Source: Octopus vulgaris
Taxonomy: Eukaryota
DNA: 64,000 nucleotides
Reading direction: 5' to 3'
Assembly (NCBI GenBank): GCA_951406725.2
Contig: OX597835.1
Coordinates: 38,378,001 to 38,442,000 of the forward strand
Shown: positions 3,300 through 48,634 of the stretch, piece after piece
Layout of the letters: every line of letters begins with the position of its first letter
Position numbering within the stretch: position 1 is the stretch's first letter
Translations under genes and position numbers: made by a program
The notes under the pieces: generated by a model
The model's input: the letters and a program-made list of their open reading frames with translations, nothing else
The model's database searches: none
Told to the model about the DNA's origin: nothing

Positions 3300-3719
3300 G
3301 TATGTATGTATGTATGTATGTATTTATATGTACATATTTTATTGTATCTGGGGAGAGTCATTCTCTTTTAGTGCTTTATTACTTAACACACGCACCGGTT
3401 CGATTTCCGCTCATGTATTTATTTTCCTAAAATTTTCGTTGCGTTTTGCAACCTCTTCGATAGTCGTTGATTCTGTCCGTTATCAGAGCTGCGTCTTATT
3501 GTTTGTTCGTTTGTTTATGCGCACATGCGTGCGTCAGCGTGCATGTCTATACACATATACATGTATGTATGTATTTATGCATGTAATGTATGCGTATATG
3601 CATGTATGCGTGTGTATGCATATGTATATGTATGCTTGTGTATACGTTTTTATGTATGTATTCTGCATATTCATGTGTTTGTGTGTTTATGTTTGTGTGT
3701 ATGTGTGTTTGTTTTCTTC

Positions 3720-4160
3720 CCCTTGGCAGTGAAGAAAAGCACCGTAGGGCACTGGAGTTGCTGGATCATACCCACCTAGGATCCTGAGAGCAGCAGTCAG
3801 GCGAAAAGAAGGATTGCACATGAAATAGGGCCTAGCATAAGACCCACCTTGAAGAACCCCATAGTAACGTTTAACAGGAAACTATACAAGCGGGTTTAAA
3901 GTGCAGTCATTGGTGTCAGTATGGCTGGAGATGTGGCCGGCCTCTTCATGACCTGGTGGGACAGAAAACTTCGGCAATCCATAGCGGAACAATCCCTAAC
4001 TGTTTTGCTTTCCTCTAGGTACGTAGACGGCATTAATATCCTAGTTAGGACAAACACTAGTAACTGTAATATAGAAACGTAGAGGAACGTAATTGAGAAC
4101 ATCCAGCACGTAGCTTACTCCATCCACCAAGGTATATAGGTAACTATAAACTACCGCACT
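3720..4160 (+). pseudogene. Penelope-like reverse transcriptase fragment (decayed)
   Basis: Frame from 3846: TFNRKLYKRV*SAVIGVSMAGDVAGLFMTWWD...SRYVDGINIL...IQHVAYSIHQGI*VTINY; YVDD read as YVDG; internal stops. Confidence 0.8.
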
Positions 4161-40370: not shown

Positions 40371-41097
40371 ACGTATTCGTATATATTGCGTGTACGTGTG
40401 GGAGGCGAGCGCATGAGTGTCACGTTAGAATACACATCCTCAATATGTCGTCCAGAAATTTCCGGACCAGTTGTCTACGAAGGGAAACTGTTAACCATTC
40501 CACCATGCGCGAATTACACGTGATGTTTGATACAAGAGTTAGGAACACGAGACATGGCACCTCAATGGGTGTTAATTGTGGAGGTTTCGTTTCTTATCTC
40601 TTTTTCTTTGTCAGCAGACGACGTTTTTTTCCTCTTCAAATATTAGACACCATTGCTTTTGTAGAATCACTTCCGTTTCATGCAATGTTAAAACTTCCTG
40701 AACATTCCAACCAATGAGAAAAATGACTGCGAATAAATTATTCTAGGACGTCTGCTGCACAAAAACATAACAATGAAATGGGTACTTGTGGACTCAACCC
40801 TTTGTTTGTCGAATTTCATAAGTTTTTCCTAAACGCCCATGTCTCTCTTCAGGCTTTTAGTCAACCCTTATTTCATATGTTCTGAGAAATATAAAGTTTT
40901 CCTTTCATAAGTCCCAAGTTATTCCGGTGGTTGCTCCAGTTCATTCAGCTGTAGAAATGAGTTTATGGCCTTCCATAAACAACCTTGCTCGGACTTGTGC
41001 CTCAGGGAGGCAATTTCTAGGTGCCATCCCATGGTCATTCATAACCGAAAGGTGTCGTGACCCTTTACCCTTTATATATATATATATATATATATAT

Positions 41098-41512
41098 ATT
41101 TCTTTACTACCCACAAGGGGCTCAACACAGATGGGATAAACAAGGTCAGACAAACGGATTAAGTCGATTATATCGACCCCAGTGCGTAACTAGTACTTAA
41201 TTTATCGGCCCTGAACGGATGAAAGGCAAAGTCGACCTCGGCGGAATTTGAACTCAGAACGTAACGGCAGATGAAATACCTATTTCTTTACTACTCACAA
41301 GGGGCTAAACACAGAGAGGACAAACAAGGACAGACAAACGGATTAAGTCGATTATATCGACCCCAGTGCGTAACTAGTACTTAATTTATCGACTCTGAAA
41401 GAATGAAAGGCAAAGTCGACCTCGGCGGAATTTGAATTCAGAACGTAACGGCAGACGAAATACGGCTACGCATTTCGCTCAGCGTGCTAACGTTTCTGCC
41501 AGCTCGCCGCCT
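41098..41512 (-). mobile_element. SINE family B dimer
   Basis: Two bodies, junction at 41280/41281. Confidence 0.9.
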
Positions 41513-45697: not shown

Positions 45698-46020
45698 AAT
45701 AAATAAAAAAAATGGGACAAGAATGCAAAACATCAGGACAACTAGGTGATACAAAAAGGGACAACAAAGCATCCAGATAGACGATACAAAAAAAAACAAG
45801 GACGGGTCATTCAAAGCCCCTCTCTCCTCAGTCAAGCACCAGATTATCCTCGCAATTTCGGCTGATTAATCTTGAGATTGCCCCAATCTGGCCAGCCTCA
45901 AAGAAAAACTAAGCTAAGAGCATTAGATTCCTTGGAAAGCAGCGAATGTATACAAAAACAAGGACGGAAAAATCGGACATGTAGACATACATACATATAT
46001 AAAAATACATACATACATAT

Positions 46021-46400
46021 GGAAGCACTCCGTCGGTTACGACGACAAGGGTTCCGGTTGATCCGATCAACGGAACAGCCTGCTCATGAAATTAACGTGT
46101 AAGTGGCTGAGCACTCCACAGACACGTGTACCTTTAACGTAGTTCTCGGGGATATTCAGCGTGACACAGAGAGTGAAAAGGCCGGCCCTTTGAAATACAG
46201 GTACAACAGAAACAGGAAGTAAGAGTGAGAGAAAGTTGTGGTGAAAGAGTACAGCAGGGATCACAACCATCCCTGCCGGAGCCTCGTGGAGCTTTAGGTG
46301 TTTTCGCTCAATAAACACTCACAACGCCCGGTCTGGGAATCGAAACCGCGATCCTATGACCGCGAGTCCGCTGCCCTAACCACTGGGCCATTGCGCCTCC
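46021..46400 (-). mobile_element. SINE family C, full length
   Basis: Reverse match to 24258-24641; ACATACATAT on both flanks. Confidence 0.92.
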
Positions 46401-46415
46401 ACATACATATGTGTA

Positions 46416-46522
<107 letters not shown>

Positions 46523-46643
46523 CAAAATCAAGGAACGGCCATAATAGGCCATTCACCCACTAGAAATAACAGCCAAAGCTTCAACCGCAAAACAACATTA
46601 ATTCCGCAAACCAGGAGAAAATTAAAAAAACATTTACCCTGTA

Positions 46644-46750
46644 GTTCTTTATACGATGCACCGTTTCATCTATTGTTTAATGGTAAACTAACCTGATTAA
46701 ATTAAATCAAGCTAGTCTTCCATAGGCCGATAGATTCGTCAGTAAAGAAC
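46644..46750 (-). ncRNA. Type I hammerhead ribozyme, copy 3 (inverted)
   Basis: Reverse complement of 46997-47103. Confidence 0.9.
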
Positions 46751-46996
46751 GGCCAGATCGGAGCCGATATTTACACGAGGCACTTCTATCACTGTCTCGG
46801 CAATATCTGACCTAAAATTTTCAAATCATCGCACTCGCGCCAAATTTATCGGCAGCAAATATAAGCCGCCGATTCCATTACGGAATTAACCAGAAAATTC
46901 ATAATTAATCAATATATATGATTTGAAAATTTTAGGTCAGATATTGCCGAGACAGTGATAGAAGTGCCTCGTGTAAATATCTGCTCCGATCTGGCC

Positions 46997-47103
46997 GTTC
47001 TTTACTGACGAATCTATCGGCCTATGGAAGACTAGCTTGATTTAATTTAATCAGGTTAGTTTACCATTAAACAATAGATGAAACGGTGCATCGTATAAAG
47101 AAC
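46997..47103 (+). ncRNA. Type I hammerhead ribozyme, copy 1
   Basis: Stem I GTTCTTTA/TAAAGAAC; core CTGACGA 47005-47011; stem II closed by ATCTAT/ATAGAT; GAAA 47080-47083; stem III CGGTGCATCG; GUA triplet 47093-47095. Confidence 0.9.
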
Positions 47104-47481
47104 TACAGGGTAAATGTTTTTTTAATTTTCTCCTGGTTTGCGGAATTAATGTTGTTTTGCGGTTGAAGCTTTGGCTGTTATTTCTAGTGGGTGAATGGCC
47201 TATTATGGCCGTTCCTTGATTTTGCTGTTGAATTTATAAATGGTCTATGACTATTTAATTTTTTCCCACTAGGCCGCTGGTGGCAAAAAGAATTCTACGA
47301 AATTTTTTGCCACCCTATATTGATTAATTATGAATTTTCTGGTTAATTCCGTAATGGAATCGGCGGCTTATATTTGCTGCCGATAAATTTGGCGCGAGTG
47401 CGATGATTTGAAAATTTTAGGTCAGATATTGCCGAGACAGTGATAGAAGTGCCTCGTGTAAATATCTGCTCCGATCTGGCC

Positions 47482-47588
47482 GTTCTTTACTGACGAATCT
47501 ATCGGCCTATGGAAGACTACCTTGATTTAATTTAATCAGGTTAGTTTACCATTAAACAATAGATGAAACGGTGCATCGTATAAAGAAC
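47482..47588 (+). ncRNA. Type I hammerhead ribozyme, copy 2
   Basis: Same motif 485 nt downstream: CTGACGA 47490-47496, GAAA 47565-47568, GUA 47578-47580; one substitution in distal stem II. Confidence 0.9.
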
Positions 47589-47807
47589 TACAGGGTAAAT
47601 GTTTTTTTAATTTTCTCCTGGTTTGCGGAATTAATGTTGTTTTGCGGTTGAAGCTTTGGCTGTTATTTCTAGTGGGTGAATGGCCTATTATGGCCGTACC
47701 TTGATTTTGCTGTTGAATTTATAAATGGTCTATGACTATTTAATTTTTTTCCCACTAGGCCGCTGGTGGCAAAGAATTCTACGAAATTTTTTGCCACCCT
47801 ATATTGA

Positions 47808-47963
<156 letters not shown>

Positions 47964-48634
47964 ATATTTATATATAGCTCGCGGAGGCTTCGGCATAGTG
48001 CACAATGCCATTTTCTATGCATTTTCTTTCAAGATGTCATAGCTACCTCACTTTCGCCATATTTGGTTTCTTACCTTTGTATTGTGGTTCTCAACATCAC
48101 TATATGTGGTTTCCATGTAAATATAGCACATGCTTAAGCTGTTTCTCGTGAATTAGTTAACCTTTGTTCAGGTTAATATAGTCCAAATTACATTACACAA
48201 AGTATCGTTTTTAGAAAGGTTGCGCTGGGTTTGAGGGAGATTTGGCAATTACATCCATCAGGTCGAATGACAGTTTAAGGGGTAGTATTTTCCTTTCTAT
48301 GTATCAGACGCCGGAAGTTAAAATAATCATCAACTGCATCGGTTTCTCTAGTCTGAAGGTGTGTATAAATATTTACGGTAACTGCTTTTCTCCTTGTATC
48401 ACTAGCGCTACCACCACGACCACCACCACCAGCGACGCCTCCGCCATCTCCTCATCCATTTGTGCGTGTGTGTGTGTGAGAGAGAGAGAGAAAGAGAGTG
48501 AGAGAGTGAGAGTATATTTAGGTGTGAGTGTGTGAGTTTGAATGTGTACACGAAGCTATACACTGTTACCTGACAAACGTGTATTCTGATTCATTTAAAA
48601 GTAAAAAAACGTATACATTACACAAACATGTATC

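Follow-up and report, generated by a model that had tools for sequence, protein, structure and literature searches.

Among described elements, the metazoan non-LTR retrozymes (Cervera and de la Pena 2020, PMC7229834; Li, Clavereau and Pollet 2026, 10.64898/2026.07.22.740005) are close counterparts of the octopus repeat considered here. As described there, they are built of tandem units that are non-coding, low in GC and a few hundred bases long, each with a single type I hammerhead; they occur in thousands of dispersed copies and are associated with Penelope-like elements (PLEs), and the octopus unit, known from sequence alone, is alike in these respects. The differences lie in the ribozyme. 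Stem II of the retrozymes is usually 4-5 bp with a short loop, whereas that of the octopus family spans 60-78 nt, and in place of the archetypal loop contact we predict a Watson-Crick loop-loop helix. PLEs are described as forming a partial tandem with an inverted 5'-truncated copy, with alternative fixed 3' ends, a (TA)n target and a palindromic stem III, and all of these recur in the octopus family (PMC4209133, PMC8557442, PMC11167929). The hammerheads reported in the same sources are minimal, whereas the octopus unit, which has no ORF, carries a full-size ribozyme with a tertiary helix whose pairing is predicted.

Pseudoknots have been predicted in ~40% of hammerheads (PMC3088659). In the type II and type I hammerheads with pseudoknots, human C10orf118/HH10 among them, a pseudoknot of 4-6 bp joins the peripheries of stems I and II, as it would in octopus, and the type II hammerheads use the same strand of stem II as partner as the octopus form does (Perreault et al. 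2011, PMC3088659). The partner described there is a terminal loop or a free tail, whereas here it is an internal loop capped by a long hairpin. Toad and termite HDV-like RNAs and Drosophila pseudoobscura have atypical type III hammerheads in which an internal loop followed by an extra hairpin pairs with the other loop, in nearly the same letters (GCCR / YGGC) as in octopus (PMC7936874). As described, these form a mirror image: their extension (~20 nt) lies on helix I and the partner is terminal loop 2, whereas the octopus extension (44 nt) lies on helix II, both partners are non-terminal and the topology is type I. The domain II internal loop of the CChMVd (-) hammerhead also makes a tertiary contact, but there the U/A motif is non-Watson-Crick, loop 1 is a hairpin loop and the cap is short (PMC2632901). 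The crystallised PK hammerhead, with a pseudoknot in place of helix II (PMC11300833), and the non-circular permutations of the hammerhead (PMC10085705) are different designs, and the 'long helix II' reported for viral type I hammerheads is only 6-8 bp (PMC13725137).

The novelty implied by the initial annotation of this DNA is narrowed by these publications, as both pseudoknots (PMC3088659) and the mirror-image internal-loop form (PMC7936874) were already in print. Because neither the element class nor the pseudoknotted hammerhead as such is new, the surprise is limited. In the literature open to search (subscription papers, figures and some supplements lay outside it), we found no cephalopod hammerhead and no type I form in which a 44-nt arm is combined with two loop strands that are both non-terminal; the putative loop-to-loop type I form is the part for which no precedent was found.

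The window, by which we mean the whole 64,000-nucleotide stretch of Octopus vulgaris DNA that was analysed (contig OX597835.1), contains three complete hammerheads, with cores at 47005 and 47490 on the forward strand and at 46742 on the reverse strand. The features of the first, and the positions of the other two, are as follows.

46993-46996, forward strand: loop 1 strand, GGCC here and GGCU in most family members, forming half of the predicted pseudoknot
46997-47004, forward strand: 5' strand of stem I, partner 47096-47103, covarying
47005-47011, forward strand: hammerhead core CUGANGA (here CUGACGA), read from sequence
47012-47079, forward strand: stem II, 68 nt, made up of a proximal helix, an internal loop and a 44-nt distal hairpin (47024-47067), covarying
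47019-47022, forward strand: loop 2 strand GGCC inside the stem II internal loop, the other half of the predicted pseudoknot
47080-47095, forward strand: GAAA, palindromic stem III and GUA, with the cut predicted after A47095 from the hammerhead consensus
47096-47103, forward strand: 3' strand of stem I, partner 46997-47004
47478-47588, forward strand: second hammerhead copy, with a single G>C at 47520 in the distal hairpin
46644-46754, reverse strand: third hammerhead copy, within the inverted arm

The core is complete, with GAAA at 47080-47083, an A47083-U47094 pair, stem III at 47084-47093 and the triplet GUA at 47093-47095, and it agrees with the type I consensus in the methods of PMC3088659 (C3 U4 G5 A6 N7 G8 A9, G12 A13 A14, A15.1-U16.1, H17). 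Three helices surround it, and helix I, formed by the 8 bp of stem I (46997-47004 / 47096-47103), is the open one. By sequence, the motif is a type I hammerhead, with self-cleavage predicted. The segment 46980-47120 folds at -38.5 kcal/mol (z -3.85), and none of 200 shuffles was as stable. Every coordinate in the initial annotation matched the sequence, and the computed fold reproduced the pairing it had proposed for stem II, namely 6 bp, an internal loop, 4 bp and 14 bp (about 14 in the annotation) including G.U pairs. In a MAFFT alignment of 35 variants, 94.6% of the cells of stems I, II and III were paired and all three stems had two-sided changes (13 such pairs), while sliding the stem partners by 1-3 columns in the same alignment lowered pairing to 21-51%. 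The first pair of stem II, A-U in the window copy, was mismatched in 11 of the 35 family rows. Stem II measured 60-78 nt across 38 subfamily representatives and, as judged by its covariation, this long stem is real.

Stem III was palindromic, loop included, through six sequence variants among the 38 representatives. Taken alone, it could close on itself only by 4 bp around a palindromic loop of 4 nt (-0.2 kcal/mol), in line with the near-palindrome with a tiny loop noted at the outset, and formed a two-strand duplex at -17.5 kcal/mol. Because the monomer is marginal and the duplex stable at these values, this motif could take the route through dimers that has been described for type I hammerheads of metazoans (PMC4209133).

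Rfam returned no hammerhead match at the gathering score in the window and none at E up to 10 in the repeat unit, likely because of the long stem II insertion. A published core descriptor allows a spacer of 7-17 nt between the core halves (PMC8557442) and would therefore miss a motif with a 68-nt stem II. The expectation that size-limited searches overlook this architecture was thus borne out for Rfam and for that descriptor. Hammerheads with a stem II of 60-78 nt, present in thousands of copies, escape Rfam, and genome ribozyme counts are therefore too low.

The contact predicted to join stem I with stem II is a helix of 4 bp, formed by 46993-46996 with 47019-47022. A pseudoknot of five pairs, as initially inferred, was rejected: the fifth pair, G46997:C47018, holds in only 9 of the 38 representatives, and in 30 of them the G46997 position is paired with its partner in stem I. 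The complement is 4 bp and not 5 because G46997 closes stem I. The pseudoknot as such was upheld by covariation. Automatic alignments lose the register of loop 1 because stem I varies in length (uncorrected MAFFT gave 92% loop pairing with 6 of 35 rows out of register, and later automatic alignments were also out), so the loop strands were anchored by hand for the final pair counts. Anchored in this way, the four pairs hold in 150 of 152 cells across the 38 representatives: pair 1 is G-C in 35, G.U in two and A-U in one; pair 2 is G-C in all 38; pair 3 is C-G in 29, U.G in two and U-A in seven; and pair 4 is U.G in 26, C-G in five, U-A in five and unpaired in two. Compared across genomic copies, as the initial annotation proposed, the pairing is kept in homologues, with two separate compensatory changes fixed in amplified subfamilies, one from C-G through U.G to U-A and one from G-C to A-U.

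The four pairs were also tested by pattern searches of the genome (2.8 Gb, 227 contigs) for copies departing from them. The core with a window-type stem III gave at least 1,766 exact matches (control 0), and a looser anchor 2,093 (control 17). Loop 1 of young copies reads only GGCC or GGCU, keeping C-G or U.G, and a first sample of them, with this one-sided C/U change only, was not decisive. Older subfamilies, found with the common stem III excluded, kept both loop strands though stems I, II and III, arm length and spacing differed; one of them, with a 474-bp unit 73% identical to the window unit, has GGUU in loop 1 and AACC or GACC in loop 2. The U-A class gave 295 pattern matches (control 1), and 95 of the first 100 listed were family members. 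Matches to the C.A mismatch class numbered 28, with only three intact family singles and one copy broken at an inversion junction, and those to the wobble U.G class 31, including a GGU/AGCC subfamily at four sites, one of which has a further mismatch at pair 4. A search for a changed final C in loop 2 returned 315 matches (control 6), and among the first 100 listed 66 belonged to one subfamily with GGCU in loop 2; its loop 1 reads AGCU at 16 of 16 insertion sites checked, which makes pair 1 A-U. Three other sites keep G.U at this pair, and one 3-copy array (L328) and single copies break it. Pair 2 changes were found in 20 matches (control 2); those from the family are single copies, most of which have intact sisters next to them. 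Young copies with a changed loop 2 base in pair 4 numbered six matches, five of them to A. Pair-breaking changes were seen only at single sites. The peripheries of stems I and II thus share at least four complementary bases with covariation, as in pseudoknotted hammerheads. Since the four pairs are held, the compensations are fixed in subfamilies and the breaks are confined to single sites, loops 1 and 2 very likely do pair.

A maximum-likelihood tree was built from the 38 representatives after the two loop strands had been masked. In it, the states of loop 1 and loop 2 follow the order GGCU/GGCC, GGCU/AGCC, GGUU/AGCC, GGUU/AACC and AGGUU/GACCU, with starred support on four nested forks; in a distant clade, GGGCU/GGCCU is sister to GAGCU/GGCUU. 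When the eight loop bases were left to evolve independently on this tree (0.5-2x the mean rate, two transition biases, 4,000 runs), 0-2.6% of the simulated runs reached the observed pairing, and at most 0.1% reached it together with two two-sided changes. These results bear on the suggestion that the helix is a by-product, in which a short GC-rich palindrome is kept for protein binding and the matched changes hitch-hiked by chance as two subfamilies expanded. GGCC is self-complementary and is found again in the unit (47197-47200 and 47207-47210), and only two clear compensatory events are seen, as such an origin would have it. It is hard to reconcile with the near absence of mismatch classes genome-wide and the expansion of both compensated classes, with the placement of wobble intermediates on the right branches of the masked tree, and with the simulated frequencies, and we consider it very improbable.

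A scan for 4-bp helices pointed in the same direction. It used 65 distinct family rows, with 10 junction-broken rows and 6 rows of a second family (family B, below) set aside and the AGCU subfamily not yet included. At least 95% pairing was reached by 56 of 8,256 possible helices, and 10 of these had a two-sided change: eight fall within stems I-III, one makes second use of a stem II strand, and the last is the loop helix, the only one of the 8,256 that joins two free strands with both properties. It should be noted that the rows were drawn by search patterns that partly fix the tested motifs, and that clear two-sided changes occur at two loop pairs only, each essentially one evolutionary event. 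Some subfamilies have a weak loop helix (-3 to -4 kcal/mol), and the loop 2 strand could instead pair with an invariant downstream GGGU, a pairing that is 99% complete and has no two-sided change. The natural compensated variants already supply controls for the loop helix, and what began as a sequence oddity becomes a testable structure, in which the type I contact of stem I with stem II is predicted to be a short helix between two non-terminal strands.

With moderate confidence, we propose that the 4-bp helix likely pairs as a pseudoknot, holds stems I and II side by side and speeds self-cleavage. The usual stem I/II contact is made by a 5' U of loop 1 and a 3' A of loop 2 (UNmYN / RNnA; PMC2632901), and across the octopus subfamilies these bases were not kept, as both the U after stem I and the final loop 2 base are variable. 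The loop 2 strand is a continuation of the stem II strand that comes after CUGANGA, which is the strand whose 3' tail pairs in type II pseudoknots; there, breaking the pseudoknot slows cleavage 20- to over 100-fold and compensation restores it (PMC3088659). We favour a brace on these two grounds, the use of the type II activating strand and the loss of the usual U/A contact, and by this analogy an activating tertiary contact is plausible. Against it stands the variable spacing of the loop strands from the core (5-9 nt on the stem I side, 5-8 nt on the stem II side), which a rigid brace might not allow. The loop helix would form first during transcription as a simple hairpin, become a pseudoknot once stems II and I close, and replace the usual non-Watson-Crick loop contact. 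In nascent-chain folding it appears as a hairpin enclosing the stem I 5' strand and CUGACGA, with a probability of 0.76-1.0 until ~47104, and is lost once the stem I 3' strand is present, a loss that is uninformative because nested folding programs cannot score pseudoknots.

In the satCYDV-RPV (+) hammerhead, the helix II partner is reportedly an internal loop. This hammerhead of Miller and Silver 1991 resembles the octopus form in its longer helices and its stable pseudoknot between loops 1 and 2 (PMC7936874, PMC6155905, PMC3152364) and differs in being type III, in belonging to a plant virus satellite and in a contact that lowers cleavage (PMC7936874, PMC3152364). The octopus helix might likewise attenuate cleavage, as the satCYDV-RPV contact lowers the rate (PMC3152364; PMC7936874 Fig. 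4D legend). The hairpin that sequesters the stem I 5' strand and the core in nascent chains would suit such a role, as would the constrained folds of several older copies, in which the loop helix outcompetes stems I and II, and the fact that copies are reverse-transcribed across the cut site. Yet the late loss of the helix carries no weight for the reason just given, the palindromic stem III already supplies a monomer/dimer control of the kind described for metazoan hammerheads (PMC4209133), and most of the hammerhead pseudoknots reported as tested activate (PMC3088659), so that we hold attenuation, the main rival to the brace, to be unlikely. We regard it as distinctly unlikely that the helix is a folding aid only, which stops loop 1 from mispairing and is then released, with docking by other, non-Watson-Crick contacts or none. 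The helix is the first to form in nascent chains, loop 1 otherwise mispairs with 47391-47395 (~0.4) in the circular monomer, and the variable spacing suits a loose role; but extension to 5 bp arose twice (U.U to A-U and U.U to G.U) where other pairs had weakened, which agrees with selection for stability whichever model holds, though a lasting contact would lead one to expect it. The tolerance of a 44-nt insertion beyond the docking loop also offers a natural template for engineered aptazymes.

The hammerheads lie in a repeat whose parts in the window are as follows.

46403-46521, no strand: left (TA)n target tract
46521-47815, no strand: whole insertion, an inverted 5'-truncated arm and a tandem of 485-bp units, flanked by (TA)n
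46521-46916, reverse strand: inverted arm (unit positions 399-485, then 1-309), running into (TA)n
46918-47402, forward strand: first copy of the 485-bp non-coding unit (start point arbitrary), longest ATG-started frame 19 codons
47193-47214, forward strand: predicted hairpin directly upstream of the commonest short 3' end (unit positions 303-324), role putative
47403-47815, forward strand: second, partial unit (unit positions 1-414), 98.8% identical, running into (TA)n
47813-47976, no strand: right (TA)n target tract

Like non-LTR retrozymes, the insertion has tandem units, each with a complete type I hammerhead, that are non-coding, low in GC and a few hundred bases long; like non-autonomous Penelope-like elements, it has a partial tandem, an inverted 5'-truncated copy, fixed 3' ends and a microsatellite target. 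The 485-bp unit therefore fits a retrozyme with a Penelope-type insertion pattern, as far as its sequence features indicate. Family insertions elsewhere are short arrays in which an inverted arm is frequent. At sampled loci, their 3' ends cluster at unit positions 303-309, 324 and 407-418, and a TA repeat follows 86 of 116 of them. These fixed 3' ends, at two or three unit positions, fall just downstream of predicted hairpins. A cleavage footprint was not found in the genomic 5' ends, which are scattered, with 2 of 161 within unit positions 175-185 (cut site 178/179). In the AGCU/GGCU subfamily, stem I begins with a G-C pair, stem III is a perfect palindrome and the arrays are long, one of them with 17 copies (L278-L294, G000 C1:195860632-195868474); the subfamily also occurs in contigs of runs X1 and X2. 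Family contigs are present in sequencing runs that are only guessed to be RNA, in which a circle and a tandem repeat are indistinguishable, and their presence is no evidence that the family is transcribed.

By analogy with the described elements, we infer that the unit is cleaved, circularised and mobilised by a Penelope protein. Cleavage, as a monomer or through a stem III dimer, would cut multimeric transcripts into 485-nt units that circularise, and a Penelope-like reverse transcriptase/endonuclease would copy these into (TA)n. A candidate helper is the protein of an element that we call L069, with an intact Penelope-like frame of 727 codons (L069:519-2702, forward strand). [quoted passage not shown] The protein had no sequence match in Pfam, NCBIfam or PDB; part of the members among its Atlas neighbours belong to GIY-YIG and RVT_1 families. 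The pLTR of this element (272-433 = 3637-3798) carries a minimal hammerhead. The element terminates in (TA)n, where a retrozyme copy adjoins it back to back, and it has at least 150 copies that are near-identical. A short motif near the first fixed 3' end of the retrozyme insertions resembles the 3' end of the L069 pLTR. Alignment of the unit with the pLTR gave a local score of 54 (shuffles 27+-4), out of structural register and AT-rich, and on this alignment alone we do not accept that the unit descends from the pLTR.

A broader reading, which we offer as unlikely speculation, would make the loop helix a folding timer or switch within a distinct, search-invisible architecture of cephalopod retrozymes. 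Forming first, it would set when multimers are cut or circles spared and would make the long arm of stem II free for the Penelope protein to dock on; stepwise compensation would be recorded in the subfamilies, and the design might be widespread in invertebrate repeats missed by short-stem descriptors.

Further hammerheads with long stems II occur in other repeats. Family B (L153, L155, L156, L162, L175 and L178) has a stem II of ~50 nt and an otherwise different sequence; GGCU in loop 1 and UGCC in loop 2, giving three pairs of G-C type, are kept in 6 of 6 aligned rows, and further copies (L173, L174 and L177) have single changes. Family C (L179-L182 and L223-L234) comprises older, decayed hammerheads with a stem II of ~57-64 nt, found in 12 pattern matches; the loop complement was present in one of four copies folded (from L179-L182 and L228-L230) and is not counted as support. 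Long stems II with short palindromic stems III were also seen in other repeat families, at L150:1204-1327, L222:588-714 and L185:1491-1630 (all on the reverse strand), and more such hammerhead-like motifs at L230:347-484 (reverse strand) and L146:233-348 (forward strand). Elsewhere in the window, a repeat-like stretch with a tRNA-like part lies at 46020-46400, just left of the (TA)n tract, and a 184-bp tandem dimer of an interspersed repeat, which we take to be an octopus SINE-like sequence, lies at 41097-41463.
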